Positions 1,849-62,561 of a DNA stretch of 64,000 nucleotides are shown here, one piece after another. The stretch is from an uncultured virus (IMG/VR IMGVR_UViG_3300025653_000029). Taxonomy: Duplodnaviria; Heunggongvirae; Uroviricota; Caudoviricetes. The notes beneath the pieces were generated by a model. That model had not been told where the DNA came from, did not search any database, and saw only the letters and a program-made list of their open reading frames with translations. Each line of letters starts with the position of its first letter. The first letter of the stretch is position 1. The stretch lies in the IMG/VR virus record IMGVR_UViG_3300025653_000029; one strand, 5' to 3'. A program made the position numbers and the translations under genes.

Positions 1849-2790
1849 ATGACAGAAGATTTCTTTGCTTGGAATAATAGTTATATAGGAGGAACAGAAG
1901 TTGCATTAAAATGGTTTCATAAAAATGTATTGCCAGAAATGAAAAATTTAAAAAACTATAGATGCATATCTGTTCCTGGAAAGCCTACTATACTAGAAAA
2001 TGTTTTAGATAATAGTAAAAAAAATATTTTATGGCTTCATCTAACACCAAATCAAGTAGACGATAATGGAATGAATGTTTTACAAATGACTGATTTTAAA
2101 AAAACACTTCATAAAGTTATTGCTATTTCTAATTTTCATAAAAAAAGAATAGTGTCAGAAATGTCATTAGATCCAAAAATGGTTGAAGTTATTGAATATC
2201 CAATTGATGAAGATATAACATTTGATTTTTCAAAGTTTGACAATGTAAAGAAGCCAAAAATCATTCATGCATCACAATCAATAAGAGGGCTAGAAATTCT
2301 TTTAAGAGTATTTGAAACTTTAGACGAGGACATTGAGCTAAACATATATAATGATTTTTACCCTGAACAAAATTATAGTCCAGCACTTGATAAAATAATG
2401 AAAGATGAAAGAATTACATTCTACGGAAAAACTCCAAGAGTTACTTTTTTAAAGGAGCTATCTAAGTCACATATACATGCATATCCTTCAATTTTTGATG
2501 AAACGAGCTGTCTTGTTCAAGCAGAAGCAATGCTTTCAGGAAATCTATGCGTTTATAGTAATTATGGGTCGCTCCCAGAAACTTCTCTTGGTCATGGAAT
2601 AGTCTCTGACTTTTTATCTATGTTAACAATAGATGAAATAGCTGAAGACTATAAAGAAAAACTAATTGAATCTATTAATATAATTAAAAACGGTAAATTC
2701 GATCCATCCCAGCAAGTAAGCGATATAAGAGAAAAAAGAAATAAGGAAAAAATTATGCAAAAATGGCTTGATTTTGATAAAGAGTTATAA
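1849..2790 (+). CDS. GT-B fold (GT4-like) glycosyltransferase
   Basis: 'GGTE' at the N-terminus, 'ISNFHK', 'RGLEILL', 'YPSIFDETSCLVQAEAM', 'GSLPET'. Confidence 0.8.
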   Translation: MTEDFFAWNNSYIGGTEVALKWFHKNVLPEMKNLKNYRCISVPGKPTILENVLDNSKKNILWLHLTPNQVDDNGMNVLQMTDFKKTLHKVIAISNFHKKRIVSEMSLDPKMVEVIEYPIDEDITFDFSKFDNVKKPKIIHASQSIRGLEILLRVFETLDEDIELNIYNDFYPEQNYSPALDKIMKDERITFYGKTPRVTFLKELSKSHIHAYPSIFDETSCLVQAEAMLSGNLCVYSNYGSLPETSLGHGIVSDFLSMLTIDEIAEDYKEKLIESINIIKNGKFDPSQQVSDIREKRNKEKIMQKWLDFDKEL

Positions 2791-2822
2791 ATATTGCCAT
2801 GTCATGATAAAATTGTATTAGG

Positions 2823-5800
2823 ATGATTACCAATTCTAATCTATATGCTGAAAGAGTTTTTGCTGAGCACCCCCTTTCTCTATGGCCTCTAGATGATAAT
2901 ATATCTTTTTTACAACTATTTTCAGATGCACAACAAAATTTATCAGACAATACATACTGGTCAACTTCTAATTTAGCACAACAAGATCCAAGAGAGTATT
3001 CTGAAACTCCTATTCCTGGTAGTACATCTTCTCGTTTTACACTTAATTCGTCAAATTCATATGTTGCTGAAATAACAAGCAACTTTACATTAAATAGTAC
3101 AGACGACTTTGATATATCTAAAAATAGTGGATGTTTTTCTGCACACGTTTACCAGGAGTCTATTTTTATTGACTCCTTTGAAATTGGCGTATCATATGGG
3201 TCTGTAGAGGACACCAGCAGCTTTTCTTTCGATACTGATGTTGGTTGGCACAGTATTCTTCATACCTTTGATTTGCCTGAAAATGAAGAACTAACTTTTT
3301 TTATTAGAATTACATTTTCTGATTCAGGATATGTTTCAGATTTTGTTACACAAATAAATGGCGTATCTTTAGGCCAATGGTCAGAACAATATATTGTTAG
3401 TTCAATTGGAATTAATTCAATAGATTTACCTTATGAAGTTGAAAACCTTATAACTTCTGGATCTGCATATAATGCAATAACAGTTGATGCTTATGGACTA
3501 GATACAGAAATAAATGGCTACTACTTAGTTAAAGACAATAAAATTTATGCTCAGAATTTTGGAATACCCCTTGTTTTTGGTTCAAACCATACAACAAAAA
3601 TATTTGAAGCACCAGACAACAACCCATCAATTATAATGCCAGGTCTTGGATTCTTAAACGACTCTGGAAAATATAATAACTATACCCTTGAGGCATGGGT
3701 AAGAATGGAAAATGTTGGTGCAAATCCAATTAAAATTATTGGTGCGGTAAAATCAAGTGACGGAGTTTATGTTGAAGAAGGATTCATAACTTTAAGAATA
3801 GGACCATATTTTAAATCATATTATGTTGGCAAATGGTATAGACCAATGTTGTTGCACTTTAAATACTCTCAGTCTGAAGCTACTTTATTGATCAATGGAG
3901 AACAAGTAATAACAATGCCAATTGATATAAGCAACATTGTTTTTGCAACACAAGAAGATGAAATAGGCAATAATCAAGACTGGATAGGAATATATGGTAG
4001 CGATTTTATTCAGCCCTTTGAAATTGATTGCGTTTCTATTTATCCGTATTTAGTACCAATAGAGATGGCAAAAAAAAGGTTTGTATATGGTCAAGGAGTT
4101 AAAGAGGTAAATTTATCAAACGATATTTATTCTACAAATTCATATGTTTTTGACTATTCATTTGCAAACTATGCAGCGAATTCTTTATACCCAGATATTA
4201 GTCCATGGAGAAGTGGTTTCGCTAATAATTTAGATGCAACATCTACTCATTTAACAACTCCAAATTATCAGCTACCAGAAGTTCAGCTAAAAAGAAATTC
4301 ACGCTTCCTTGATGTGTTTGAGTGGTATGCAGAAAATAAAACTGCTAATGATATAGACAGTGATCAATATACATACATAACAATGAAGCCACTATATGAA
4401 AGAGAAAGATTCTTAAGGTGGTCAGAAGTTTATAATAATGGAACTGTTGATTGGTCAAGCATAACAAACGATAATTGGTATAATGCAACAAATGAATTCT
4501 TTGTAAATGAAAATATTTTATACTCAGATGTTAGTATCTATTACGATAATATAAATATACTTGATCAAAACTTAGAGTCTGTATCGGGGGTATTTAGATC
4601 GCCAGATTCTGCCATTATTTTGCAGCCTCTTTTATATTTTAGAAATAAAGTAACAAATGAAGCAATATCTATTGAGCTAGATTTAAATTGGCTAAAATAT
4701 ATTTATATTTCTTCTGCTGGAGATCAAACAGTCTTACATATTGAAAAAATAGAAGATGCAGAATATTTTGTTGCTGGAATAAATATAAAAAAGTTACAAA
4801 TAGATAAATATTCAATTATTGGAAGCTTCTTTTCTTCATTAAATAATATATCATTAAATATCGGTGGATATTTAGATAGGTCATTTGGTGGAAGAATTTA
4901 TGCTATTCACTTTAATAATGAATTCTTTTTTGAAAAAGATATCTCGAAATATTTTATTGGATCATTTATAGCACAGAGAACTGAAACAGAAAATGTCTCA
5001 GGATCACTTATAGAGTATACAGCAAATTACTCATTGATTCCAAGCGAGAAAGACTATATAGTTGATTTAGATATTGGTGTGACAGGATACTGGGAAGACT
5101 TTCAGCCTCTGTCTTTTTTTGGTAAATATGTCACTAATGAATTAAACGAGACATATTATGATTTAGATATGATTCAATTTAATTTTGATATACCTAAAAA
5201 AGCTGAAGTAAACGAATATTTAAAGGGATATTTAAGTTATGCATCAATAGATCTTTTATATTCATCATATTCTCAACTTCATTTTTCTGGACTTACTTAT
5301 GCAGACTTTTCTAACATACTTGTTTCTGGATATACCAGATATCAAGAACTAAAAGATGCTTCATCTTCATTAGAATCAAGTACTTCATACGATACATCTG
5401 TAAACGCCTATCTTTCTTTTCAAACTAAGTCTGAGGTTGGAAATAAGCCATACTCAGACTTTATAAATACAGAAGCTGTGTCTTATAACAACGTGGTAGA
5501 GTTTGATAGATCTGCTTATACAAACACTAAGTATGAAATATTAGATAATAGTGTTATTTTACCGCCAAAAACACCAGACTTTAAAGATTATTATTTAGGA
5601 ATACACCTAGAAATAAAAGTAAGAGGAATACTTTATAAGAATTTACTACTAAGAAGAATGGAATTATCGTCAATAGCATTTGACAACTCATCTGGGTACC
5701 CTGTTGGAACAAAATACTCAAATGATGTTTACCCTTTTACAAGAGAAAACTATTTATTTAATTATAAAAAACAAAATCCATTTACAATATACAAGGATAC

Positions 5801-6581
5801 TTCTCCATACTTATACCTAACAGAATATTCTGGAATATTTGTAAAACCTTTTAATTCAGAATATGAGCGTGGAATATTGGTTCCTATTAATAAAGAAAAA
5901 CAATCAGATTATAAAGTTGGCGGAATTCAGTTTTGGACAAGGTACCCAATAACAGAGTTTCCAGACATTCCATTTAAAGTTGCAAAAATTAAAAGTGACA
6001 ATGTAGACATAGACCTTTATTTAAATCCAGAATCAAGTGGTAAAAGAGCAAAACTTATTGCTTATGATTATAAAACTGGAAAAGAATATAATAACTTTAT
6101 ATTCTTCCAAGATTCTGAAATAGTTAACAATCCAATTATTTATCCGCGTCAATGGACTGCAATAAATATTGCTTTCCCCGATCCAATAGAATTTGACAAT
6201 ATAACTGGAAGAATAGAGCTATATTCTGGTATGGTATTCAATAACATTGGTGAATATAAATATTCACAACCGCCAAATCAAGAATCAAAAGCTTACCTTA
6301 AAAAATGGTGGCAGCTAATTTCTAATGCAGGAAATAATTTTATTAATAATTGGCAAGACTTTGTTAGGCCAAGCGGAGCAGAACAAGATTTAACATGGGA
6401 GGACGCATCAATTATTTTTGTTCCAAATCAATACATAATAAATGGATCAAACGAGTACAATAATCAAGTTGGTCTTTCTATTTCTGTAACAGAAGATATT
6501 TCTTCTATATCGGTCTACTCTAATGGAGTAGATACATTTACCGATGTTCAATGGGAAATTGTTGAGGGATCTCCAATATAG
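2823..6581 (+). CDS. large virion structural protein with LamG/concanavalin-like domains
   Basis: 1252 aa, beta-rich. 'YAERVFAEHPLSLWPLDD' start and 'YTLEAWVR...LLINGEQV' LamG-like signature. Confidence 0.55.
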   Translation: MITNSNLYAERVFAEHPLSLWPLDDNISFLQLFSDAQQNLSDNTYWSTSNLAQQDPREYSETPIPGSTSSRFTLNSSNSYVAEITSNFTLNSTDDFDISKNSGCFSAHVYQESIFIDSFEIGVSYGSVEDTSSFSFDTDVGWHSILHTFDLPENEELTFFIRITFSDSGYVSDFVTQINGVSLGQWSEQYIVSSIGINSIDLPYEVENLITSGSAYNAITVDAYGLDTEINGYYLVKDNKIYAQNFGIPLVFGSNHTTKIFEAPDNNPSIIMPGLGFLNDSGKYNNYTLEAWVRMENVGANPIKIIGAVKSSDGVYVEEGFITLRIGPYFKSYYVGKWYRPMLLHFKYSQSEATLLINGEQVITMPIDISNIVFATQEDEIGNNQDWIGIYGSDFIQPFEIDCVSIYPYLVPIEMAKKRFVYGQGVKEVNLSNDIYSTNSYVFDYSFANYAANSLYPDISPWRSGFANNLDATSTHLTTPNYQLPEVQLKRNSRFLDVFEWYAENKTANDIDSDQYTYITMKPLYERERFLRWSEVYNNGTVDWSSITNDNWYNATNEFFVNENILYSDVSIYYDNINILDQNLESVSGVFRSPDSAIILQPLLYFRNKVTNEAISIELDLNWLKYIYISSAGDQTVLHIEKIEDAEYFVAGINIKKLQIDKYSIIGSFFSSLNNISLNIGGYLDRSFGGRIYAIHFNNEFFFEKDISKYFIGSFIAQRTETENVSGSLIEYTANYSLIPSEKDYIVDLDIGVTGYWEDFQPLSFFGKYVTNELNETYYDLDMIQFNFDIPKKAEVNEYLKGYLSYASIDLLYSSYSQLHFSGLTYADFSNILVSGYTRYQELKDASSSLESSTSYDTSVNAYLSFQTKSEVGNKPYSDFINTEAVSYNNVVEFDRSAYTNTKYEILDNSVILPPKTPDFKDYYLGIHLEIKVRGILYKNLLLRRMELSSIAFDNSSGYPVGTKYSNDVYPFTRENYLFNYKKQNPFTIYKDTSPYLYLTEYSGIFVKPFNSEYERGILVPINKEKQSDYKVGGIQFWTRYPITEFPDIPFKVAKIKSDNVDIDLYLNPESSGKRAKLIAYDYKTGKEYNNFIFFQDSEIVNNPIIYPRQWTAINIAFPDPIEFDNITGRIELYSGMVFNNIGEYKYSQPPNQESKAYLKKWWQLISNAGNNFINNWQDFVRPSGAEQDLTWEDASIIFVPNQYIINGSNEYNNQVGLSISVTEDISSISVYSNGVDTFTDVQWEIVEGSPI

Positions 6582-6607
6582 ACATTTTTATTTTTTTGTA
6601 GTAGAAT
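6579..6607 (+). promoter_or_regulatory. sigma70/SigA-type promoter
   Basis: TAGACA-17 bp-TAGAAT upstream of the ORF at 6629. Confidence 0.6.
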
Positions 6608-6628
6608 ACCTATGACGAATAGGAAATT

Positions 6629-7720
6629 ATGGCAAAACCAACAGTATCTTTTTTAACATATGACTTTACTTTAGGCAGTAATCCAGTAGAACCAAATGGG
6701 TGCGCCTGGTACAGATGCTACCTTCCAATGAAAGAGCTTGAAAAAAATGGATGGGATGTAGGAATTGGATTCCCTGGATGGAATGAAGACCATGGATTTG
6801 GATTATTGGTTCCAGACAACAAGGCTATTCATGGTTGGGATGTTATTGTATTAAAACTAATTATGCTTGAGTCTATTGCTAGCAAAATAAATGAGGCAAA
6901 AAAACTAGGACAAAAAATAGCGGTGGATATTGATGACTGGTTTGAAGGATTATCAAAATCAAACCTTGCTCATAAAATGACAGACCCAGAAGTAAATCCT
7001 CGTAATAATCGTGAGCATTATATGTATATCATTGAAAATGCAGATGCAATTATTACCTCTACCCCATTCCTATATGATTTTTATAAGAATGAAAAAGGAT
7101 ATAAAAACGTATACATGGTTCGTAATGGTATAGATTTGGATAGATGGACGCAAAGAAAAGACCACTCACGATGGCTGCCGCAATTTGGTTGGGTTGGTGC
7201 AACTCCATGGAGATCTAATGACCTTGAACAATTATCTCCGTGGTTTGGAAATTTCTTAGAAAAAAATCATTTAACATTTCATCATTCTGGAGCAATTAAA
7301 AATGCAAAAGAGGCTAGGGACCAACTAGGAATTCCAAAAGCTGTTAAGTCAACAAAACAGGCTATGGAAAAAATTAGTAAGTATCCAAGTCTTTTTAGAA
7401 AAATTGATGTTGGCTTAGTTCCACTAAATGATGTTGGATTTAATCATGCAAAGTCTTCTATTAAAGGTTTGGAATATGCTGCTGCTGGTGTGCCTTTTAT
7501 AGCGTCCTGGAGTCCAGAGTACGAGCTTTTAGAGCAGCAAGGGGTAGGAAGGGTAGCAAGAAATCAAGAGGAATGGTTGCAACACTCTGAAGAACTTTTA
7601 AATCCCAATACAAGAAAAGAAGATGTAGAAAGAAATCTTGAGGGCATTAAAAAATACCAAACAATGGAAGTTCGTAGATCTGAATGGGATGAAGTAATTC
7701 ATCAAATTAAAGAGCAATAG
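6629..7720 (+). CDS. GT-B fold glycosyltransferase
   Basis: 'GCAWYRC', 'VDIDD', 'RNGID', 'GWVGA', 'DVGLVPL...FNHAKSSIKGLEYAAAGVPFIAS'. Confidence 0.8.
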   Translation: MAKPTVSFLTYDFTLGSNPVEPNGCAWYRCYLPMKELEKNGWDVGIGFPGWNEDHGFGLLVPDNKAIHGWDVIVLKLIMLESIASKINEAKKLGQKIAVDIDDWFEGLSKSNLAHKMTDPEVNPRNNREHYMYIIENADAIITSTPFLYDFYKNEKGYKNVYMVRNGIDLDRWTQRKDHSRWLPQFGWVGATPWRSNDLEQLSPWFGNFLEKNHLTFHHSGAIKNAKEARDQLGIPKAVKSTKQAMEKISKYPSLFRKIDVGLVPLNDVGFNHAKSSIKGLEYAAAGVPFIASWSPEYELLEQQGVGRVARNQEEWLQHSEELLNPNTRKEDVERNLEGIKKYQTMEVRRSEWDEVIHQIKEQ

Positions 7721-43000: not shown

Positions 43001-43312
43001 GCGGAGGCAATTCCAATTGATGAACTTGATAGTTACAAGACAAGTCCCATGATTAGGTTCCTCAACTATAAGCAAATACCCTTTGGACAAGACGAGGTTT
43101 TTGTGCTATCGTTTAATCCTAGAATAACAAAGGCGGGTAAGAAAATGGCTAACATGACAATAGCAACCGCTGATCGTGAAATGATTGCTGTAACAGTTTT
43201 CCCATCACAATTTGCACAAGCATATATGAAGTGTGAAGAAGGTACAGTCGTTAAGATTGAGCTATCAAAAACAAAAGAAGGAACTACCATTTTGAAGGAA
43301 GTAATATCATGA
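40037..43312 (+). CDS. dnaE: DNA polymerase III alpha subunit (family C)
   Basis: PHP 'HVHSHYSLMDG...TDHG', 'GPGRGSAAGS', 'FPDIDTD', 'KIDALGL', 'YSFNKSHAVAY'. No intein seen. Confidence 0.95.
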   Translation: MNYAPLHVHSHYSLMDGVATPEEYAKRAASLGMPALAITDHGVLSGHRPMYRAAKEQGVKPILGVEGYITADRFDKRDKTERTTPLDLIYNHIVILAKDPQGLQNLNTLNEIGWTEGFYKKPRIDFEVLDKYGDGLIVSSACMSGLINKAIEVDDYAVAKNHIKWFMDRFGDDFYVELMPHNVAGMNTELYNLANEMGAKCIVTPDCHHCTTDQKVIQEIMLALNTHAKIQKDVSYEKSAKIPDLMKRLDYLYGEDRPMSFRSFDIHLLSYEEMREGMEKEQKFDDSIYSNTLEIAEKVEDYKLKSNLNLLPIKVKNPEDELRNLVIDGLKSRGLDKDEEYLARVDEELSIINDKEFAPYFLVVSNMISWSKEQGIMVGPGRGSAAGSLVCYALGITEVDPIKYGLLFFRFINPERNDFPDIDTDIQDSRREEVKEYLEKEYKNVASITTFLMFKDKGVVRDVARALHVPLPDVNKALKLVDTWEDFISSNSTEWFREKYPDVQIYAEQLRGRIRGTGVHAAGVVTAKDAIHKYAPMETRTVTGTKTRIPVVAVDMDEAADIGLIKIDALGLKTLTVIQDTLRTIKERNGIDIDLNTIDLKDREVYRMLSEGNTKGVFQCEATPYTNLLIKMGVKNFDELVASNALVRPGAMNTIGKEYIARKSGKNIVEYPHSVMRPFLEDTYGQILYQEQVMQACTTVGGMTFAEADKVRKIIGKKKDAKELDVFKDKFIRNASAYISPFQADNMWHDFEAHAGYSFNKSHAVAYSMLSYWTAWLKFYYPIEFMYSVLSNEKDKDSRTEYLIEAKRMGIPLRLPHVNESEIDFSIEGKAIRFGLSSIKWLSDKVSSNIIAARPFNSYQEVRDAAFKKGSGINSRAIEAMNAVGALTFDDNPRDEKRVRENLYEYLNLPEFNINVPNHYYAYIDNSEDYEEDGSHILLGVVKNIKRGKGWSRVELLDKTGSVGIFAPEDTTIETGKTYLILASANRVAEAIPIDELDSYKTSPMIRFLNYKQIPFGQDEVFVLSFNPRITKAGKKMANMTIATADREMIAVTVFPSQFAQAYMKCEEGTVVKIELSKTKEGTTILKEVIS

Positions 43313-43659
43313 GTTATTTAAAAGATATGGATGATCTAGCCTTTACTCTGCACTCAGGAGCAGTAAAGAAGGGGTTCTATGAGCCATACTTACACATGGA
43401 TGAGGCAGACAGGATAGTGTTTTATTTAAAGCAACTGGCTATGATTCATAGTGAGGTATCAGAAGTTTTAGAGGCTATGAGGAAAGAGAAGGGCGACGAT
43501 GTTGTTGTTGAAGAGTTGGCTGACATTATCATTCGTGTCCTAGACTTTTGGGCATTTCTTTCTATGACACAGTATACAAATAAGTCTTTAGCAAAGGCCG
43601 TTGTAAACAAGATGGAAAAGAACAAGGAGCGTCCAGCGATGCATGGAGTATTAGCGTGA
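43309..43659 (+). CDS. MazG-like nucleotide pyrophosphohydrolase
   Basis: 'IHSEVSEVLEA...VEELADIIIR...KMEKNKERP'. Confidence 0.8.
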   Translation: MSYLKDMDDLAFTLHSGAVKKGFYEPYLHMDEADRIVFYLKQLAMIHSEVSEVLEAMRKEKGDDVVVEELADIIIRVLDFWAFLSMTQYTNKSLAKAVVNKMEKNKERPAMHGVLA

Positions 43660-50093: not shown

Positions 50094-51122
50094 ATGTTAA
50101 AAGTAGGCAAAGCAATGTGTTTTGATGATATTCTTCTTGTTCCACAAAAAAGCTCAATATCTTCAAGACACGAAGTTAATTTGTCAATGAGTATAGGTTA
50201 TAAAAAAAAGAAAATTAATCTAGAATTGCCTGTTATAGCAGCACCTATGGATACAGTTTGTGACACTGAAATGTGTATTGCTATGCATAATGCTGGCGGT
50301 ATAGGAATCCTTCATAGATATATGTCTTATCAAGAACAAATATTAAAGTCTCAAAACCTTTTAGAAAAAGAAATAAGATTTGGTGTTGCCCTTGCATCTA
50401 ATAATGGATATCTTGCTCAGGCAGATCATTTATATAATGTTGGAGTAAGAGTTTTTCTTGTTGATACTGCAAACGGTCATAGTACTTATGCTACTAAGGC
50501 AGTAGCACAACTTAGAAACGCATTTAAAGATGCACATATTATGGCTGGAAATGTTTCTACAAAAGACGGATTTTTAAGGTTGGCAGAAGCAGGAGCAGAC
50601 TCTGTTCGCGTAGGAATTGGTGGAGGGAGTGCCTGCACTACAAGAATGGTTAGTGGCCATGGAGTTCCAACATTACAATCAATTATGGATTGTGCAGAAA
50701 CATTTCAAGAATGTTCCATCATTGCTGATGGAGGAATAAGAACAAGTGGAGACATGGTTAAGTCTTTTGCTGCTGGTGCTGATGCAGTAATGATTGGATC
50801 AATGCTTGCTGGGACAGATGAGTCCCCAGGAGAAATACTAACAGATGCTGATGGTAGAGAGGTAAAAGCTTTCCGTGGCATGGCGAGTGCTTCTGCACAA
50901 AAAGATGCCACAGGAAAGGTTTCGGTAGCAGAAGGTATATCTACTACTGTTCCATACAAGGGTTCTGTTGCACACATTCTTAATCAAATTCGTGGTGGAC
51001 TAGGTAGTGGATGCTCTTATAGCGGAGCAGAGAATCTTTCATGCCTTGAAGAATATTCAGAATATGTAACGGTATCAGCATTAAGTATAAATGAATCAAT
51101 TCCACATGCAAAAATAGGATAG
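50094..51122 (+). CDS. guaB: IMP dehydrogenase / GMP reductase family, no CBS domains
   Basis: 'FDDILLVP', 'AAPMDTV', 'DTANGH', catalytic '[11 protein letters not shown]', 'IADGGI', 'FRGMAS', 'AEG'. Confidence 0.88.
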
Positions 51123-53801: not shown

Positions 53802-54145
53802 TTATTGCAGTTCAGGGTACAAAAAGATTTCAAGACTATGATACCTTTATGCGTGCCATGGGAGTAGCATTGTCTCAGCCAAATAATGAAAGCATAATTG
53901 AGGTCTGGTCTGCTGGCCCACACAAAATAAATTCATTTACTGCTGCCTTTTGCAACTCTGCAGAAAACTATTTGAAGCAAAAAGGTTTTAAGGTTGTCTT
54001 TAAGAAGCTCCCAGAGAATTATATTGAAGAGAACATTGACTATGTTTCTTATCTTGCCTTCTTTAGTAAAAAGAATGAGAATCAATCTAAGCTTGTGAGC
54101 ATTGCAGAACTGGCAGACATTGAAGTTGGCATTTACAGGGATTAA
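53798..54145 (+). CDS. YspA/SLOG-like protein
   Basis: 'MIIAVQGTKRFQDYDTF' matches the SLOG GxRxFxDY-type start. Confidence 0.5.
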   Translation: MIIAVQGTKRFQDYDTFMRAMGVALSQPNNESIIEVWSAGPHKINSFTAAFCNSAENYLKQKGFKVVFKKLPENYIEENIDYVSYLAFFSKKNENQSKLVSIAELADIEVGIYRD

Positions 54146-54146
54146 T

Positions 54147-54515
54147 ATGTTGAGCAATAAAGATGTTTCTTATCTTAATCTTGCACGATCCTTGGCAGAA
54201 AGATCTGAGGAAAATAAAAGGCATGGTGCTGTCGTAATCAAATCTGGAAGAGTCGTTGGCTATGGTTTTAACAAGTTTAAAAATCATACAGACCTGTTTC
54301 CAGAGGAACTAATTAAGGTTCATTGTTCACGACATGCAGAAGAAGTTGCAATTAAAACCGCTGGACAAAATGCAAAGGGAGCGATTCTTTATGTTGCAAG
54401 AGTAAATAGGCAAGGTATAGATAGAAATAGTAAGCCATGCAAGATATGTGCAGACCTTATTAAAAACTCTGGAATTAAAAAGGTTATTTATACCATGGAG
54501 GAAACATGTCACTAA
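54147..54515 (+). CDS. Zn-dependent cytidine/dCMP deaminase family protein
   Basis: 'HGAVVIK', 'HAEE', 'PCKIC'. Confidence 0.85.
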   Translation: MLSNKDVSYLNLARSLAERSEENKRHGAVVIKSGRVVGYGFNKFKNHTDLFPEELIKVHCSRHAEEVAIKTAGQNAKGAILYVARVNRQGIDRNSKPCKICADLIKNSGIKKVIYTMEETCH

Positions 54516-55914: not shown

Positions 55915-56193
55915 ATGGACACTGAAACCAAATGTTTAATTCTTGAAGAGCTTTCTAAAGCTTTTACTTTTGGGGAATTGGACAGGGAGTTTTTTTCAGA
56001 ATTCATAATATATAATGATCTAGGTCTTCCACTAGCGCAAATGGTTGCCTACGATCTTGGAACTTTAAATAATGATGGGAAAAAAATAATAGATGAAACA
56101 TGGCTATCATTGTGTAATCTATTAAATTTAGACCCAACAGAAGAGTTTCAAAATATTGATGATATGCTAGATGAGTATGAGTCAGATGATTAA
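55915..56193 (+). CDS. hypothetical protein
   Basis: 'FIIYNDLGLPLA...IDETW' motif. Confidence 0.6.
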   Translation: MDTETKCLILEELSKAFTFGELDREFFSEFIIYNDLGLPLAQMVAYDLGTLNNDGKKIIDETWLSLCNLLNLDPTEEFQNIDDMLDEYESDD

Positions 56194-56918
56194 TTTACTG
56201 TTGCTAGGAAATTACCCTGATCATCTAGTCTAGAAATATTGTATCCAAAATCTCTTAACAGAGATTCAGATGTTGGAGGGGTTTGAATTCCAAGATCTGC
56301 CAATGTAGACTTTGAAATAGTTTTATGATTATGTTCAAATACTATTGTTGGCATACATTCTTTTATGGTTTTTTGTGCACCTAAAAGAACTAAGGGTTCA
56401 AATCCCTCCACATCTATTTTCATAAAATCAACATTCGATAGATCTAGCGAATCAATCGTAATGATATTGGTAGCCTCTCCACCCTTGCCCATTTGTAGTC
56501 CACCAAGATTATATCTTTTTTCTGTTCCATAACCTATTTCTCTATTTGCATTCTCACCATCAATAGATGAATTACTCATTGTAAATATTCTATTTTCATG
56601 TCCAACGGCACAGTTATATATGTGAACATTGTCAAAATTATTTTGCTCTACATTATGGGTAAGCAAGTCTGACATTTTTCTTTGTGGCTCAAAGGCAAAT
56701 ATCTCAGAACTTGGATTTAGATATTTATACAATATTGTATGAGATCCAGCATGTGCACCTATGTCAAGAATAGTTTTACTACTCTTTATATATGGTGCAA
56801 GTTTATTTAATACTAAGCCTTGCTCATATATCTTTCCATTATTTAATGTATCAGCAAATACCTGATCATTTTTATAATAGGCTATGTATCCGTAATCAGT
56901 TTTCTTTTCTATAATCAC
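56190..56918 (-). CDS. FkbM-family SAM methyltransferase
   Basis: 'ILDIGAHAGSH', 'AFEP', 'FMKIDVEGFE..VLLGA', 'PTIVFE'. Confidence 0.88.
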   Translation of the reverse strand: MIIEKKTDYGYIAYYKNDQVFADTLNNGKIYEQGLVLNKLAPYIKSSKTILDIGAHAGSHTILYKYLNPSSEIFAFEPQRKMSDLLTHNVEQNNFDNVHIYNCAVGHENRIFTMSNSSIDGENANREIGYGTEKRYNLGGLQMGKGGEATNIITIDSLDLSNVDFMKIDVEGFEPLVLLGAQKTIKECMPTIVFEHNHKTISKSTLADLGIQTPPTSESLLRDFGYNISRLDDQGNFLATVN

Positions 56919-56948: not shown

Positions 56949-57737
56949 ATGTTTAAACCCATACAATATGACAAGCATTTTGTTATCGGAACCCCCCTTG
57001 TTGGATGGAAAGTAGACAGAGGTGAGCATATGTACTGGTTACAGAATGCAAATAAGATTAGAGAAAAATTTCCCAACGCTGTTTACTTTGCTGCATTAGA
57101 GCTTGATCACAGAGGAATAGAGCCATTTAAGCCAATGATAGAAGTATTAGAATCTGTTGGCGGTAATTACTGGACATACACTATTGATGATAGGCAGGAG
57201 ACAGTAACATCTGGCAATCGCTGGATAAGAATTGAAACTGGTCGTAATCTTATTCGTGAGTTTGCACAAAGAAAAAGAGTAATGTCTGGAAATAATTGGG
57301 GAGAAGAAACAAAACAGTCAGTTGTAAATTTTGATGCGATTCTTTATATAGACTCAGACAATATTGTTACAACGGAAATTATAGAAAAAATGTTTGAAAT
57401 TGATAGACCACTTGTTGGTGTAGATGTTCCAGCATATGGGTTGAAGGGCGAAGTTGTAAATCAAAGACCAAGAATTGAGGAGCATTGGACAACTGCTGGA
57501 ATGCTGCTTGTTAATGCTCCAGCCTATTACGACCTACCCTGGTTTCATAATGCATACTTAAATCTTAGCGATGACCCAACATTCCAATCAGTTGCGAATA
57601 GACTAAAAAGGCGGGTAGGACAAGAAACATTTGAAGATACATATGGAATGACATGGGTAAGAAAAGATATCAAGTCTGAGCATAAGGGTCAATTAATTTC
57701 TGTAGAGAAAAGAAATATACCTAATAGAATTATTTAG
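56949..57737 (+). CDS. GT-A-like glycosyltransferase
   Basis: 'FVIGTPL', 'GRNL', DxD 'ILYIDSD', 'SDDP', C-terminal His. Confidence 0.55.
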   Translation: MFKPIQYDKHFVIGTPLVGWKVDRGEHMYWLQNANKIREKFPNAVYFAALELDHRGIEPFKPMIEVLESVGGNYWTYTIDDRQETVTSGNRWIRIETGRNLIREFAQRKRVMSGNNWGEETKQSVVNFDAILYIDSDNIVTTEIIEKMFEIDRPLVGVDVPAYGLKGEVVNQRPRIEEHWTTAGMLLVNAPAYYDLPWFHNAYLNLSDDPTFQSVANRLKRRVGQETFEDTYGMTWVRKDIKSEHKGQLISVEKRNIPNRII

Positions 57738-58257
57738 TTCTCTTGCCATTCTTTTTAATGCCAAGTAGCCTTTGTACTTCCTTAACATCTTTAAAGGTAG
57801 TATTTCTTTTAGCACCACGATCCCATGACTGAGAAAGTTCTGTGTGCATACCGTCTGGCTTTCTCCACCATTCACCATTTGCAAAAATTCTGTGACCATC
57901 CTTTGTCTTGTAACGATCAAGAATGCGGTTGAGGATCTTCATTTCTGATTGATTCATGTGTGGCTTACCGTCTGGCTTAAGAACATCGTATCTAAGGTCT
58001 ACGGCTGTTCCAGATGCGTGGTTTGAATAGTTTTTGGTATATCTAGAGTATCTGTAATTCCACCCGTCTACTGGACCTTTGTTTAGATTGAGTCTTTCTG
58101 GCATTTCAGCGTGCCAGTCTGCAAGAAATGCAGCAAAAACTGGAGCGATGCCACGACGAACACGAACGGTTCGATTAGTTCCTGGAATTTTAACAGCCTT
58201 AAGTCTTGGATCTGCCCATTTTGTAATTACGGGCCAGTTGTTTAATGATTTAGCCAT
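57730..58257 (-). CDS. peptidase M15 family cell-wall hydrolase (endolysin candidate)
   Basis: 'GWNYR...SNHASGTAVDL...DGMHTE' Zn ligands. Leaderless start at MAKSL. Confidence 0.8.
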   Translation of the reverse strand: MAKSLNNWPVITKWADPRLKAVKIPGTNRTVRVRRGIAPVFAAFLADWHAEMPERLNLNKGPVDGWNYRYSRYTKNYSNHASGTAVDLRYDVLKPDGKPHMNQSEMKILNRILDRYKTKDGHRIFANGEWWRKPDGMHTELSQSWDRGAKRNTTFKDVKEVQRLLGIKKNGKRTK

Positions 58258-58279
58258 ACAAATATTATACACTATACCT
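58258..58279. promoter_or_regulatory. overlapping divergent leaderless -10 elements
   Basis: Minus strand: TATAAT(58269-58264)-6 nt-ATG(58257). Plus strand: TACACT(58268-58273)-6 nt-ATG(58280). Confidence 0.6.
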
Positions 58280-59158
58280 ATGAATTACGAAGAATTCTTA
58301 AAGTTCTGGCTAGAAGAAAGCCAAGGGTTTAATAAATTTACAGATATTCAGAGACTGTCTTCTGGAATATCATCTAATGTTTGTAGAATAGGTAATGCTA
58401 GTGGTGACACACTAATATTAAAATATGCTATATCAGATGACTTTGTGACCAAAAAAAGAATATTCAATCAGTATCAAATACAAAAAACTCTTTATGGTAG
58501 CTTTCCTGTTGCCGAGCCTCTTTACTATAATATTTCTCCATCAATTTTTGAATTTCCTTTTTACATAATGGAAGATATTGAAGGAAGGCCAAGTTACAAT
58601 AGTGAATCAATAATTAATTCGTTTGATATGCTGCATAAGTTACACAGCATGGATCTTGATAAATTTTTAACATCGAAAACCAAGGGTAAAAATAACATAG
58701 GATATAACATACAAAAAATAAACAAACAATGTATTGATAGGTCAGAGTTAGTTCCCATAAATGTAGATCACATACATAAGTGGCTCATGAAAAATTATCC
58801 AGAAGAAAACAAAAATTCAATAGTTCATAATGATTGGAAAATGGACAATATTTTATTTCATAATAATCAGATATCCGCAATACTAGATTGGGAGCTTTTT
58901 GATGTAGGAGATCCTAGAATGGATTTTGGCATAGCAATGTCTTACTGGTCGGATGAGTATTTATGTCCCAAGGAGAAGGTGCTTGATTTATTTATTGATA
59001 AGTATTTTGTAAGTGAAAAAGAGTGGAAATTCTTTGAGGTTTTAGGAATGTTTAGGCTAATTCCCATAGCACAATTAGCACAGATACGATATAATAATAT
59101 GACTATCCAAGATAAAATAAATACGATAGTAGAAAGATGCGAAGGAGCAATAAGATAA
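58280..59158 (+). CDS. APH / ACAD10-11-like phosphotransferase
   Basis: 'LSSGISS' loop, 'LILK', 'FYIMEDIEG', Brenner motif 'VHNDWKMDNILF', 'ILDWE...GDPRMDFG'. Confidence 0.85.
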   Translation: MNYEEFLKFWLEESQGFNKFTDIQRLSSGISSNVCRIGNASGDTLILKYAISDDFVTKKRIFNQYQIQKTLYGSFPVAEPLYYNISPSIFEFPFYIMEDIEGRPSYNSESIINSFDMLHKLHSMDLDKFLTSKTKGKNNIGYNIQKINKQCIDRSELVPINVDHIHKWLMKNYPEENKNSIVHNDWKMDNILFHNNQISAILDWELFDVGDPRMDFGIAMSYWSDEYLCPKEKVLDLFIDKYFVSEKEWKFFEVLGMFRLIPIAQLAQIRYNNMTIQDKINTIVERCEGAIR

Positions 59159-59770
59159 ATGTCAAGGGTTTTATATCAGCCAGTATTAAATCAGGCCATT
59201 AATGATAACTCAGCAATACTTAGGGGCTGCCAAGATAGGCTAGATGCTATGGTTGCCTTTTGTGAAAACAAGTTTGGCTCCTCTCTTTCAGAAAAGTCAT
59301 TTTTAGATATTGGATCTTGTTACGGATTTTTTGTAAATGCATTTAATGGTTTATGCTCAATTGTTACTGGTATTGAGAATGGAAACAAACAATTTAATAT
59401 GACCAGAATATTTTATCCAGACATTTCTTCTCAAATAAACAAAGAAGATTTTACAGAGACAATAGACGGCTACCAAAATTATGACATTGTTTCTCTTTTA
59501 AGCGTATTGCATAGCATAATAATTTCAGATGGTGCCGATCATGCCGCAGAAATTCTAAGAAAAATTGATGCAAAAACAAATGATGTTTTATTTATTGATA
59601 TGGGCCAAGAAAATGAATTAATTTATAACAGCAGTATGAGTGGATGGAATAAAGATTCTATTGCCCAATGGGTACTGAATGAGACAAGTTTTGATGTTTG
59701 TGAACCATTGATTGAAGACTCTGACCCAAGATTTGGAAGAACCCTTTTTGCCTGTTATAGAAATAAGTAA
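59159..59770 (+). CDS. class I SAM-dependent methyltransferase
   Basis: Motif I 'FLDIGSCYGFF', 'GIE', 'YDIVSLLSVLH'. Confidence 0.8.
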   Translation: MSRVLYQPVLNQAINDNSAILRGCQDRLDAMVAFCENKFGSSLSEKSFLDIGSCYGFFVNAFNGLCSIVTGIENGNKQFNMTRIFYPDISSQINKEDFTETIDGYQNYDIVSLLSVLHSIIISDGADHAAEILRKIDAKTNDVLFIDMGQENELIYNSSMSGWNKDSIAQWVLNETSFDVCEPLIEDSDPRFGRTLFACYRNK

Positions 59771-60942
59771 TGAAGCAAGTAATTGGCGGGGAAGACTTAA
59801 TAAATAGTTTTATTTCTCTTAGAGACTCCTGTGATAATGGATATTTTCATTATAGCTATGGCAAAAGAGATGCACTATTAATATTTTCTCCAGAAATTGT
59901 TAATGAGGTCTTAGTAAATAAACAAAACAGTTTTTCTAGAGGGATAGTTTTTCTTAAAATGAAAAACTTTTTTGGCAATGGCTTGATAGTATCAGAAGAT
60001 CCAGAGCACATAACAAACAAAAGAATGCTGCAGGGTAGTTTTAGCAAAAAGATAGTTGATGATTATCAAACAATAATTAATAATGAATGCAATGCAAGCT
60101 TTGAAAACTTAGAAGAAAAAGGCTTCTCGTTGTCAAATTTAGCAGACAAGGTAGCATTTGATTGCGTTGCTAAATGTTTTATTGGAGAAGATGTTCCATC
60201 TGAATATATTTCTGCATACCATGATATATCTTATAAGATATCTAACATTCCTAGACTTGTATTTTCTACTGAAGAAACAATTAATTTTTCGCCTGTTAGA
60301 AACTTTATAAAAGATATTATTTTACAGAGCAATGTACAAGATAACTTACTTTGGTCAATGATTAATTCTGACATGAATACTGATCAAATAACTGATGAAA
60401 TAATAACCATATTAGGTGCTGGATTTGAAACAACAAGTGCTTTGATATCTTGGACACTTATTAATTTGTATAACAATGATGACGTTCTACAAAAATGTAG
60501 AGAAGATGACTCAATGATAGATAAAGCTATTAAAGAAACATTGAGAACAAATCCTCCTGCTTACTTTACAACTAGGACGGCATCAAATGATATAGATTTA
60601 TCTGGCGTAACAATAAAGCAAGGAACAAATATTTTTATATCGCAATATGTTACTCATAGGGATAAAAAATACTATTCAGATCCAGATAATTGGAACCCTG
60701 AAAGATGGAGTAAACAATTTGAAAAAAGCTTGCCCCGTGGAGCATACTTCCCTTTTGGAATGGGGTCTAAAAAATGTATTGGCGAATATTTTTCTATAAT
60801 GGTTGCAAAAACCTTTATTTCATTATTCATTAATAGATATCATTTTGAAATAATTGACAAAAATATTAAACCAAAGTACCTTGTTTCCATGATTCCAGAT
60901 AGCCCTGTGACTACAATCACTAGTAGTTTGTTCGACAAATAA
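59770..60942 (+). CDS. cytochrome P450
   Basis: I-helix 'GAGFETTS', K-helix 'ETLR', meander 'PERW', heme motif 'YFPFGMGSKKCIG'. 390 aa, no frameshifts. Confidence 0.92.
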   Translation: MKQVIGGEDLINSFISLRDSCDNGYFHYSYGKRDALLIFSPEIVNEVLVNKQNSFSRGIVFLKMKNFFGNGLIVSEDPEHITNKRMLQGSFSKKIVDDYQTIINNECNASFENLEEKGFSLSNLADKVAFDCVAKCFIGEDVPSEYISAYHDISYKISNIPRLVFSTEETINFSPVRNFIKDIILQSNVQDNLLWSMINSDMNTDQITDEIITILGAGFETTSALISWTLINLYNNDDVLQKCREDDSMIDKAIKETLRTNPPAYFTTRTASNDIDLSGVTIKQGTNIFISQYVTHRDKKYYSDPDNWNPERWSKQFEKSLPRGAYFPFGMGSKKCIGEYFSIMVAKTFISLFINRYHFEIIDKNIKPKYLVSMIPDSPVTTITSSLFDK

Positions 60943-60960
60943 ACAAAGTCTTGATATAAT
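60932..60960 (+). promoter_or_regulatory. promoter
   Basis: TCGACA-17 bp-TATAAT with TG. Confidence 0.65.
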
Positions 60961-60996
60961 TGAGATATCCCAACAATCCCAAAAGGAGGAATTTAC

Positions 60997-61170
60997 ATGA
61001 AAACACTCATGCGTAAAATTGAGAATCTTTTCACAAACGCCACAAGCGAAGAAGAAAAGTCTCGTCGTGCAATGCACCGTGCATGGATGGTCGAAAGAGA
61101 AAGGGCCGCTAGATATGGCCCCCATCATGTCCAAGAGATTGACGCAATCTTTACTCGCGCAGGACTCTAA
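60997..61170 (+). CDS. 57-aa protein (not in the ORF track) ending EIDAIFTRAGL
   Basis: Own promoter, AAGGAGG RBS, higher GC, followed by a hairpin. Confidence 0.75.
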   Translation: MKTLMRKIENLFTNATSEEEKSRRAMHRAWMVERERAARYGPHHVQEIDAIFTRAGL

Positions 61171-61237: not shown

Positions 61238-61420
61238 ATGCTTGACTGCAGAGGCATTCCTACGAGGGAATGCATAAATTGTGGATCAAATCTTTTTACT
61301 GTACAAGTACAATTTGATGAAGCATATGAAATTACCTCGTATCTACTTGACTGCGAGTGTGCTTACTGTCATACTAAGCTAACTGCTCCAACACCGTTGG
61401 ACCTTATAGAAATGGATTAA
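61238..61420 (+). CDS. small Zn-ribbon protein
   Basis: CINCGS...CAYC; GGGAG RBS. Confidence 0.65.
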   Translation: MLDCRGIPTRECINCGSNLFTVQVQFDEAYEITSYLLDCECAYCHTKLTAPTPLDLIEMD

Positions 61421-61421
61421 T

Positions 61422-61913
61422 ATGCAAACCTTTGTTCCGTATGTAGACATGTATGAGTCTGCTTCTGTATTGGATAACAAGCGACTTAATAAACAACTGC
61501 TAGAAGGTCGTCAAATTTATAGCATCCTATCCTCTGGACGTACTAGGGGTGGGTGGGTACGGCATCCAGCGGTACTTATGTGGAAAGGTTATGACAACGC
61601 ACTCTTTGAATATCTCATTGCTATTAAGTATGAATGTGATGAACGCGGCATTAGTACAGAAAAGAATTGGGATGCTATTCAAGAAATGTATGACTGGAAT
61701 TGGGATCGTGGCGACAATATCGTAATGCCTCCGTGGTGGGGAGATGAAAGGATACACGAATCTCATCGCAATAACCTATACATAAAAGACCCAGAATATT
61801 ATGCAGAGTTTCGTAATGCTAATCGTGTAGCATGTTGTGACAAGTGCAATTACTTCTGGCCCACACATACGCTATACTACAATCTAGAAATGGAGCAATT
61901 AATTGAAGCCTAA
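61422..61913 (+). CDS. pyrimidine-dimer DNA glycosylase / endonuclease V-like (MSMEG_6728-like) protein
   Basis: 'MQTFVPY...LDNKRLNKQLLE...HPAVLMWKGY...PPWWG...HESHRNNL..KDPEYY'. Confidence 0.8.
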   Translation: MQTFVPYVDMYESASVLDNKRLNKQLLEGRQIYSILSSGRTRGGWVRHPAVLMWKGYDNALFEYLIAIKYECDERGISTEKNWDAIQEMYDWNWDRGDNIVMPPWWGDERIHESHRNNLYIKDPEYYAEFRNANRVACCDKCNYFWPTHTLYYNLEMEQLIEA

Positions 61914-62102: not shown

Positions 62103-62561
62103 ATGGATATCTATCAGGAAGTTCTATTCCCTGCGCCAACAGAAAGATACTGTTATGTGTGCAAAAGAATTCTCCCTGAAGAAAACTTTGCTAAAAATGT
62201 TACTAAAACAGACGAGGTAAGGCCTGAATGCCGCGAGTGTGATAATAAACAAAGACGGGAAAGAAAGCAAAGAGAAAAAGAAAGAGATCCAGATGCCTGG
62301 AGAGATAAATACTTGAAGAAAAAGTATGGAATATCTCTTGAAGATTATAACAAAATGGTAACGGAACAAGACGGTCTTTGCTGGATATGTGAGAAAGAAT
62401 CTGATTTGGTTGTAGATCACGATCACGATACAGGAAAAGTCAGGGGACTTTTATGTAGCCTTTGCAATACTTCTCTTGGCGGATTTAAAGACAGTACAGA
62501 TTCATTGTATAAAGCCATTGACTATCTTATTACTCATAATAAAGGCATACAATATTATTAG
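62103..62561 (+). CDS. endonuclease VII-type (His-Me) endonuclease, probably homing-type
   Basis: 'KYGISLEDY...QDGLCWIC...VVDHDHDTGKVRGLLCSLCN..LG.FKD'. Confidence 0.88.
   Translation: MDIYQEVLFPAPTERYCYVCKRILPEENFAKNVTKTDEVRPECRECDNKQRRERKQREKERDPDAWRDKYLKKKYGISLEDYNKMVTEQDGLCWICEKESDLVVDHDHDTGKVRGLLCSLCNTSLGGFKDSTDSLYKAIDYLITHNKGIQYY

Follow-up and report, generated by a model that had tools for sequence, protein, structure and literature searches.

In mycobacteria, sulfomenaquinone is made with the pair CYP128/Stf3, of which the first, a cytochrome P450, hydroxylates the lipid and the second, a sulfotransferase, attaches an anionic group. P450s are, to our knowledge, almost unknown in bacteriophages, and we know of none there with a known role. 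In Escherichia coli O9a, the O antigen ends in a mannose to which WbdD first adds a phosphate and then, on this phosphate, a methyl group, the methylation requiring residues Y16, H132, H133 and R203 (PMC3482155). The kinase domains of ACAD10 and ACAD11 phosphorylate 4-hydroxyacyl-CoAs (PMC12440821, PMC11342911), and the viral P450s reported earlier, those of giant viruses, phage Adler and Ranid herpesvirus 3, have no viral redox partner (PMC9405906). Here we describe a cassette of three genes, encoding an APH-family kinase, a class I S-adenosylmethionine (SAM) methyltransferase and a P450, on a 64,000-nucleotide stretch of DNA from an uncultured tailed phage of the class Caudoviricetes (IMG/VR record IMGVR_UViG_3300025653_000029; this whole stretch is called the window below). 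The cassette is present or absent at a fixed site among related phages and is under purifying selection, and we tentatively propose that it tailors an envelope molecule.

A three-gene cassette at a fixed site

The kinase, methyltransferase and P450 genes, called the trio below, follow one another on the plus strand (Table 1). The TAA stop codon of the kinase gene (59156 to 59158) abuts the ATG of the methyltransferase gene at 59159, while the stop codon of the methyltransferase gene and the start codon of the P450 gene overlap in TAATG at 59768 to 59772. Coordinates and sequence thus bear out the initial annotation, made from the letters of the window alone, which had seen three open reading frames (ORFs) with two coupled junctions in an AT-rich stretch. 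The GC content of the cassette is 31.2%, at the 5th percentile of equal-sized segments, compared to 36.8% for the whole window. None of the three proteins contains a hydrophobic stretch of 19 residues, and all of them appear to be soluble.

We then compared the insertion site with that of related phages. The gene for an M15-type peptidase, which flanks the cassette on the left, was used as a query and found 11 loci in IMG/VR, eight of them informative (L121, L123 and L124 end too near the gene). The trio was present at one of the eight (L115, of the window lineage) and absent from six (L116, L117, L118, L119, L120 and L122, of which L119 and L120 look like one phage), where the start of the peptidase gene lies about 100 to 130 nt from orf57, or from orf60 in L122; at the remaining locus, L125, there was no trio within 5 kb. 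DNA alignment placed both boundaries of the insertion, and the trio-less relatives carry about 35 unrelated nt in its place. In sequencing run X10, the commoner contig (depth 83 versus 15) joins position 58276 to 60976, with 90% likeness and a side of 48 nt; this skipping contig is a hint that agrees with the trio-less loci of IMG/VR. The region is a discrete cassette of the "moron" type, located between the peptidase gene and orf57, and shows presence/absence polymorphism at a fixed site.

Table 1. Features of the cassette and its immediate surroundings (window positions)
Feature	Position	Strand	Evidence and remarks
FkbM-type methyltransferase	56190..56918	-	PF05050, E 3.8e-16; PHROG methyltransferase, 2.7e-27
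Probable GT-A-type glycosyltransferase (orf262)	56949..57737	+	No Pfam hit; nearest ESM Atlas clusters viral, Anp1, GT2 and GT25 families (a lead)
M15-type peptidase (endolysin-like), left flank, divergent	57730..58257	-	Peptidase_M15_4, E 3.1e-4 (below cut-off); PHROG endolysin, 9.4e-13
Candidate -10 element TACACT	58268..58273	+	Read by eye; -12 to -7 of the kinase ATG; straddles the left insertion junction
Inserted accessory cassette, 2.66 kb	58274..60929 (approx.)	+	DNA alignment with L116 to L118; GC content
APH-family kinase, 292 aa, ACAD10/11-like branch	58280..59158	+	Pfam and PDB sequence searches
Class I SAM methyltransferase, 203 aa, WbdD-methyltransferase-like	59159..59770	+	PDB hits, AlphaFold2 model, Foldseek
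Compact soluble cytochrome P450, 390 aa, catalytic motifs intact	59770..60942	+	Pfam, motifs, AlphaFold2 model, Foldseek
Promoter-like site of orf57, TCGACA-17-TATAAT with preceding TG	60932..60960	+	Scan and alignment; 11/12 matches
orf57, right flank	60997..61170	+	tblastn; conserved in relatives with and without the cassette

An identical arrangement (100%) was found on IMGVR_UViG_3300008012_000103 and on a metagenome contig of 96,865 bp (L001, L006), and a variant sharing 83 to 89% protein identity was found in L004 and L005 with the same flanks as in the window. Two Logan contigs from two other studies, X10 (2025) and X14 (2020), span positions 57790 to 61036 and 57790 to 60972 with 37 and 36 differences, respectively. 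Since these independent contigs bridge the peptidase gene, the three genes and the downstream spacer, a chimeric assembly is excluded, and the initial assignment of the genes to a phage stands. G001, the record nearest to the window, stops at position 54416 and so falls short of the trio.

The ratio of nonsynonymous to synonymous substitutions (dN/dS; Nei-Gojobori, window versus the 85% variant) was 0.13 for the kinase, 0.19 for the methyltransferase and 0.14 to 0.16 for the P450, at dS values of 0.43 to 0.66. Values of 0.13 to 0.19 are far from 1, thus indicating purifying selection on the trio; five flanking genes gave 0.07 to 0.12, and WhiB gave 0.01. Contigs from RNA libraries matched the trio without differences at 59117 to 59431, 59643 to 59892 and 60480 to 60660 (X15) and at 59629 to 59779 (X16), and two of them cross gene junctions. 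This cover is a weak sign of transcription, as DNA may be present in such libraries.

No PHROG family matched the kinase or the P450. PADLOC gave zero hits for the trio, and blastn of the 3.2-kb region against INPHARED gave no match.

Relatives of the three enzymes

The kinase consists of a single Pfam domain, APH (PF01636; E 1.8e-24, 87.2 bits versus a cut-off of 23.2). Among 1.84 billion representative sequences, 9 relatives were found at E <= 1e-30, 120 at E <= 1e-10 and 2,890 at E <= 0.001, and only 3 of the 50,697 INPHARED records matched. In an alignment of the clade, H183, D185, N190 and the D203-W204-E205 triplet were invariant in 16 of 16 members. Searching the PDB with the single sequence returned seven hits, the best of which was ACAD11 (2.3e-19). 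A profile of the clade ranked 9o56 first (9.2e-55), an APH-like structure deposited as "aminoglycoside phosphotransferase," followed by ACAD11 (1.5e-46) and 3dxp (3.5e-38), with drug kinases, including APH(2''), at about 1e-12 or worse. Judged by these comparisons, the kinase is nearer to the ACAD10/11 type than to drug kinases, as the initial annotation had proposed from its motifs. It lacks an acyl-CoA dehydrogenase domain, and none was found among the window ORFs scanned.

For the methyltransferase, the Pfam match to Methyltransf_11 was below the cut-off (E 0.0036; 18.3 bits versus 21.2). Despite this, PDB profile search, AlphaFold2 model and Foldseek agreed and thus confirmed the methyltransferase fold. 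With the single sequence, all four PDB hits were WbdD (E 1.1e-4 to 2.4e-4), and with a profile, WbdD scored 4.2e-7 to 6.3e-7, the next hit being at 0.0049. Foldseek comparison of the model (pLDDT 76.1, pTM 0.79) placed WbdD at ranks 1 to 5, with E values of 2.2e-8 to 1e-6 and a TM-score on the query of 0.55 to 0.63; ChlM came next, and the phosphate-methylating enzymes MePCE and BCDIN3D stood further down amid many generic class I methyltransferases. ESM Atlas returned only generic class I methyltransferase clusters. Motif I (D50, G52 and G56) and 57 further columns were invariant in seven of seven relatives. In the HMMER alignment, Y6 (7/7) pairs with Y16 of WbdD and H118 (6/7) with H132.

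The P450 matched PF00067 with an E value of 6.4e-53 (180.6 bits, cut-off 22.8). The I-helix segment G218-F-E-T-T222, the ExxR pair E256/R259, R312-W313 and the heme-binding residues F329, G330, G332, C336 and G338 were invariant in 13 of 13 clade members, so that the motifs first noted as intact are conserved in all three enzymes. The AlphaFold2 model (pLDDT 86.4, pTM 0.90) resembled CYP97A3, CYP184A1, CYP97C1, BM3 and CYP3A4 in Foldseek, with TM-scores on the query of 0.78 to 0.86. By sequence, the nearest solved structures were 7wzl (2.4e-30), listed by Foldseek as CYP184A1 of Streptomyces avermitilis, an enzyme also solved with oleic acid, and then CYP97A3 and CYP3A; CYP175A1 (389 aa) aligned over the full length. 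These related P450s act on fatty acids, carotenoids or steroids and give no fixed substrate, since fold neighbors do not define substrates.

The cluster of the P450 itself holds 10 sequences on 18 contigs, and 13 more clusters of 395 to 410 aa share 38 to 68% identity with it. The next tier, at 26 to 33% identity, consists of 471-aa proteins, some of them named "Ca. Nanopelagicus" or assigned to metagenome-assembled genomes (MAGs) of Actinomycetota. In a quick LG+G4 tree of 49 rows, 15 phage-type rows fell on one side of a long branch (SH-aLRT 100) and were separated by deep internal branches; of the 15, 3 have a demonstrated phage context and the others an assumed one, and a tree built without an outgroup names no donor. 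The tree suggests a deep, phage-associated clade, separate from the cellular 471-aa P450s. The latter stand alone among housekeeping genes (recA/recX/TetR; leuA/glnA), without a kinase or methyltransferase. Small-genome freshwater Actinomycetota (L015, L053 and others) thus retain a 471-aa P450 of this stand-alone kind, whose nearest solved relative is CYP184A1 (E 4.3e-57). In INPHARED, 4 of the 50,697 records matched the P450 (Pseudomonas phage Y1, Mycobacterium phage Adler twice, and Mollyvirus), in keeping with the rarity of phage P450s noted at the outset.

The kinase-methyltransferase pair and its surroundings

All carriers are related phages. At 45 to 83% identity, they have in common WhiB, single-stranded DNA-binding protein (SSB), polymerase, a protein of 593 aa and further core genes. 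The order kinase, methyltransferase, P450 occurs in the window lineage and in the L004/L005 variant. In G002 (L003/L105; L110 has the same left side), a kinase (36% identity), a methyltransferase (44%) and a P450 (43%) are followed by a 2-oxoglutarate (2OG)-Fe(II) oxygenase at a different site, after genes for PstS, a SLOG protein, dCMP deaminase and a purine/cytosine permease. (The stretch ahead of this four-gene set, L105:5260-10790, encodes more than one PstS-like protein, and its SLOG protein is of the YspA type.) In G003 (L084), at the same site as in the window, a PF11397 GlcNAc-type glycosyltransferase gene precedes a kinase (28%) and a methyltransferase (44%), and no P450 was found across its 34.7 kb. 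In L112/L113, four PF13640 2OG-Fe(II) oxygenases, a DUF6065 protein and an SDR protein precede a methyltransferase (38%) and a kinase (32%) beside the ribonucleotide reductase (RNR) gene, with no P450 in the 12.7 kb seen.

Four to five phage lineages thus have the kinase-methyltransferase pair, with either gene coming first, and two of these lineages have no P450. Since the pair is constant and the oxygenase variable (P450, 2OG oxygenase or none), the trio is not indivisible, and the pair is its core. The oxidize/phosphorylate/methylate logic of the initial view is backed by these comparisons, in that the two genes of the pair were always found together and repeatedly have oxygenases beside them, although the P450 is absent from two lineages. 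Logan contigs of equal sizes, namely, 3052 nt (P450, methyltransferase and kinase) and 6569 and 3848 nt (P450 and methyltransferase), hint at three more co-located sets.

In cells, distant relatives of the methyltransferase (23 to 33% identity) were seen at 15 loci in a survey of one genome per GTDB species. A Saccharibacteria MAG (L095) encodes the methyltransferase fused to a Pkinase domain and to GT2/GT1 domains, beside Wzm and a Wzt with a carbohydrate-binding domain, a WbdD/WbdA-like layout. In a Verrucomicrobiia MAG (L096), the methyltransferase is followed by an APH-domain gene, and the alphaproteobacterial loci contain an ABC transporter, an asparagine-synthase-like gene and glycosyltransferases.

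Two further observations concern the P450-less phages. G003 encodes a heme oxygenase (PF01126, E 1.5e-32; L084:10999-11634) a few genes from its kinase-methyltransferase pair. The RNR at L112:9336-12242 is a single ORF of 968 aa in which the matches to the 652-aa RNR of the window are split by about 950 nt, likely by an intein or an insertion.

We also looked at the genes around the site. The cassette lies beside a variable glycosylation island, to which orf262 and the FkbM-type gene belong (Table 1). In relatives, orf262 is conserved at 59 to 71% identity, and this part of their genomes also contains a GT2-like gene, a fusion of HAD and nucleotidyltransferase, and a methyltransferase of the FkbM or class I type. 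In G003, there are four PF11397 glycosyltransferases, a GT2 and more methyltransferases, and one of the PF11397 genes abuts the kinase gene. Elsewhere in the window, the AT-rich stretch from 1849 to 7720 (29 to 36% GC) encodes two GT1-type glycosyltransferases that flank a 1,252-aa protein to which neither Pfam nor PHROG assigned a family; this block might represent another glycan-related island or a glycosylated fiber. On the minus strand of the 96.9-kb contig, about 0.4 to 1.7 kb past the window end (L006:12581-13949), a PF13640 2OG-Fe(II) oxygenase (E 2.2e-13) lies with a weakly matching sulfotransferase-like protein (PF00685, E 4.6e-5), which would be a second pair of a hydroxylase and an anionic-group transferase.

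The ATG of the kinase gene at 58280 is not preceded by a Shine-Dalgarno sequence. Mycobacterial leaderless starts have a TANNNT box about 7 nt upstream, and the TACACT sequence makes a leaderless kinase promoter plausible, the candidate having been read by eye. A consensus promoter scan gave 23 sites versus 18.0 +/- 4.5 expected, none of them at the kinase start, and no terminator for the cassette was found on the plus strand in the scan. On the minus strand, a perfect TATAAT (58269 down to 58264), also read by eye, lies 6 nt ahead of the peptidase ATG at 58257 and has a leaderless-type look, so that part of the promoter-like signal at the left junction belongs to the peptidase gene. The GTG at 58272, given in the ORF list as the peptidase start, is probably too far upstream. 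At the right end, the -35 element of the orf57 promoter sits in the last codons of the P450 gene and is conserved in cassette-less relatives. Further right, orf60 (61238 to 61420) encodes a Cys-rich protein of 60 aa with homologues sharing 52 to 56% identity in cellular Nanopelagicus-type loci (L014, L053, L055 and L063). There the gene lies between Fur and uppS, about 3.8 kb upstream of the host-type P450, and is a small gene common to phage and host.

The window as a whole is a densely coding, strand-biased phage segment. PHROG and Pfam scans identified portal, protease/scaffold, major capsid and tail proteins, a tape measure protein of 2,714 aa, and DnaB, primase, a PolIII-alpha-like polymerase, a UvsX-like recombinase, RNR, SSB and WhiB. 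WhiB is a marker of actinophages and served as the search criterion in PMC10914622. The phage of the window encodes WhiB, is siphovirus-like and looks lytic. Its host is probably a low-GC freshwater or brackish actinobacterium of the Nanopelagicales type, and the Streptomyces setting assumed at first, with its chemical defense by aminoglycosides, does not fit a window of 36.8% GC or cellular P450 relatives in "Ca. Nanopelagicus" and Actinomycetota MAGs. Other accessory genes of the window, for nucleotide metabolism and repair, encode a GMP reductase/IMPDH-like protein (50094 to 51122), dCMP deaminase (54102 to 54515), MazG (43309 to 43659), a pyrimidine-dimer glycosylase (61422 to 61913) and endonuclease VII (62103 to 62561).

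Proposed function and comparison with known systems

On the basis of these comparisons, the reading that we favor, tentatively, is that the cassette tailors an amphipathic envelope molecule, be it a lipid, a lipid-linked glycan or a glycolipid, by converting a hydroxyl to a phosphate and then to a methyl phosphate. The ACAD10/11-like APH kinase of the core pair would phosphorylate a hydroxyl, and the WbdD-like methyltransferase would then methylate that phosphate or a neighboring oxygen, most likely with a capped methyl-phosphate ester as the product. The P450, working with host redox partners, would serve as an add-on hydroxylase and introduce or set up this hydroxyl on a hydrophobic portion of the acceptor; other lineages would use 2OG-Fe(II) oxygenases instead or do without an oxygenase. 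If the acceptor is a lipid-linked glycan or glycolipid, the phage glycosylation island next to the cassette would build or decorate it, and the effect would be an altered surface of the infected cell or an altered virion-associated glycoconjugate. The data show the gene identities, the borders of the cassette, the co-occurrence of its parts and the purifying selection; we infer the order of the reactions, the methylation of the phosphate, the class of substrate and the biological role.

The two leanings of the evidence meet in this proposal. The kinase, nearest to ACAD11, and the P450, nearest to CYP184A1 (oleic acid), CYP97A3/C1 and BM3, lean toward a lipid, whereas the WbdD-like methyltransferase, the neighboring orf262 and FkbM genes, and the PF11397 gene that abuts the kinase gene of G003 lean toward a glycan. 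A lipid-linked glycan or glycolipid reconciles the two. Of the initial suggestion that the pathway acts on a small molecule or an envelope component, the second half is thus the one that we favor: the affinity to WbdD and the island suggest a phosphate cap whose carrier is a lipid or lipid-linked glycan rather than a free drug.

Several observations weigh against this reading. The homologies disagree about the acceptor, a lipid according to the kinase and P450 and a phospho-sugar according to the methyltransferase. The likeness of the methyltransferase to WbdD is weak (18% identity; E 1e-4 with the single sequence and 4e-7 with the profile), and class I methyltransferase folds are generic, with ChlM, NodS and ToxA close behind in Foldseek. 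The position of WbdD H133 is variable here (S/G/E/H), and R203 lies beyond the aligned part, the invariant R194 being a candidate equivalent. No WbdD chain was among the best 60 of the 83 PDB hits of the kinase profile, and the kinase is not a homologue of the WbdD kinase. In line with what had been noticed initially, the window ORFs scanned, about 70 of 72, yielded no ferredoxin, flavodoxin or reductase, so that P450 activity would depend on host partners. A divergent endolysin-like gene separates the cassette from the glycosyltransferase genes, and co-regulation with the island is not implied. Finally, the survey covered all but about 33 kb of the 96.9-kb contig.

Among the alternatives, a doubtful one that still deserves weight is the remodeling of a lipid or isoprenoid without any glycan, in which the P450 would hydroxylate an acyl, menaquinone or carotenoid chain, the kinase would phosphorylate the new hydroxyl, as ACAD10/11 and the bacterial 4-hydroxyacyl-CoA kinase LvaA do, and the methyltransferase would cap it or methylate a carboxylate; in a variant, the P450 would be a carotenoid-hydroxylase auxiliary gene that tunes a rhodopsin antenna of the host. 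The best structural hits of the P450 agree with this, namely, the carotenoid hydroxylases CYP97A3/C1 (one solved with retinal), CYP184A1 with oleic acid, and BM3, and so do the full-length alignment of CYP175A1, the ACAD11-like kinase, the carboxyl methyltransferases of the ChlM and BioC type among the Foldseek hits, and the related P450 that stands alone in small Nanopelagicus-type genomes. However, WbdD is the sole solved relative of the methyltransferase at the sequence level, the pair occurs without a P450 beside glycosyltransferases, and no acyl-CoA dehydrogenase, CoA ligase or crt gene was found with the cassette among the scanned ORFs. The fold neighbors of the P450 do not define its substrate.

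It is unlikely that the cassette serves counter-defense, with the kinase inactivating an antibiotic-like compound made by the host or its community and the methyltransferase and P450 adding detoxifying steps. The APH family does include drug kinases, the kinase gives weak hits to the NCBIfam models of APH(3'), APH(2''), Mph and hygromycin kinases and to drug kinases in the PDB, and the oxygenases and SDR protein of L112 resemble a small-molecule tailoring cluster. Yet all 10 listed resistance models were far below their cut-offs, the best, APH(3'), reaching 37.9 bits versus 205, which speaks against the chemical-defense idea of the initial annotation. The closest solved relatives are of the ACAD11 type (E 1e-46 versus 1e-12 for drug kinases in the profile search), the likely hosts are streamlined, low-GC planktonic actinobacteria rather than Streptomyces, the neighborhood is a glycosylation island, and PADLOC gave no hit for the trio.

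We give little credence to a posttranslational tailoring of a virion or host protein, whose side chains would be hydroxylated and then phosphorylated, methylated or glycosylated. Beside the pair in L112, G002 and G003 lie PF13640 prolyl-hydroxylase-type 2OG oxygenases and PF11397 GlcNAc-transferases, two families that act together on the hydroxyproline of Skp1. The class V lanthipeptide kinase LxmK (E 1e-4) and a P450 of ribosomally synthesized and posttranslationally modified peptides are among the NCBIfam hits, which points the same way, but both matches are weak and far below their cut-offs, no precursor-peptide gene accompanies the cassette (orf57 also occurs in trio-less relatives), and the kinase belongs to a small-molecule kinase branch. 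That the genes are recently captured passengers without a role in infection is very improbable: most relatives lack the cassette at the site and its GC content is below the genome average, but the dN/dS values, the invariance of catalytic residues across deep clades, the age and diversity of the phage-type P450 clade, the recurrence of the gene set in several lineages and, weakly, the cover by RNA-library contigs all argue for selected genes.

Returning to the tailoring of an envelope lipid or glycolipid, a broader and considerably more speculative idea is that phages carry hydroxyl-capping modules, in which the kinase and WbdD-like methyltransferase form a fixed pair that leaves a methyl-phosphate mark and the hydroxylases, from an anciently viral P450 clade or of the 2OG-Fe(II) type, are interchangeable. 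If true, such modules might mask a receptor against superinfection or adjust a carotenoid, a quinone or another lipid-bound cofactor; a bacteriophage P450 would for the first time have a functional context, and the mark would be the first viral methyl-phosphate modification of a lipid or glycan. In the main texts of the open literature, to which our search was confined, we found no description of the trio cassette or, among the titles listed, of a phage-borne WbdD-like pair, and the term "P450" is absent from the main texts of both PMC6802176 and PMC10914622. The component families are already known; what is new is their combination, the phage-specific P450 clade and the behavior of the cassette. 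As the cassette is compact, selectable and naturally present or absent, it opens the role of a viral P450 to direct testing. It would extend the two-step chemistry of WbdD to phages of abundant freshwater Actinobacteria and suggests that such phages bear sizeable islands for envelope or glycan tailoring, with a bearing on receptor masking, host range and the microdiversity of Nanopelagicales-type hosts.

How the cassette relates to the described systems differs from one enzyme to the next. As in WbdD, a kinase is combined with a class I methyltransferase, for which WbdD is the nearest solved relative by both sequence and fold. In the alignment, its Y16 and H132 pair with conserved residues, and L112/L113 keep the order of methyltransferase, then kinase. 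Unlike in WbdD, the two activities are encoded by separate genes, the kinase is of the APH, ACAD10/11 type instead of the eukaryotic type, there is no coiled-coil tail, the Wzm/Wzt ABC transporter is absent from the window ORFs, H133 is not conserved, a P450 is attached, and the carrier is a phage of a Gram-positive host. With ACAD10 and ACAD11, the kinase shares the HxDxxxxN and DWE motifs, and ACAD11 is second only to 9o56 in the clade profile. It differs from them in being a stand-alone protein of 292 aa without the dehydrogenase domain and without CoA-handling genes nearby, at about 25 to 30% identity, and in having a methyltransferase, not an eliminating dehydrogenase, as its partner.

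The P450 shares the heme-thiolate signature and the ExxR, PERW and I-helix motifs with CYP184A1, CYP97A3/C1, CYP102 (BM3) and CYP175A1 (TM-scores on the query of 0.82 to 0.86), yet identity is only 18 to 21%, and it is about 60 to 80 residues shorter than most of them. Like the earlier viral P450s (PMC9405906), it is virus encoded and has no viral redox partner, which implies host partners. The P450 of phage Adler, in contrast, matches over 41% of the protein at 25% identity, and the present P450 is part of a conserved cassette with metagenomic relatives. In its overall logic, a P450 joined to an anionic-group transferase, the cassette resembles CYP128/Stf3; it would differ in adding phosphate instead of sulfate and in the methylation that follows.

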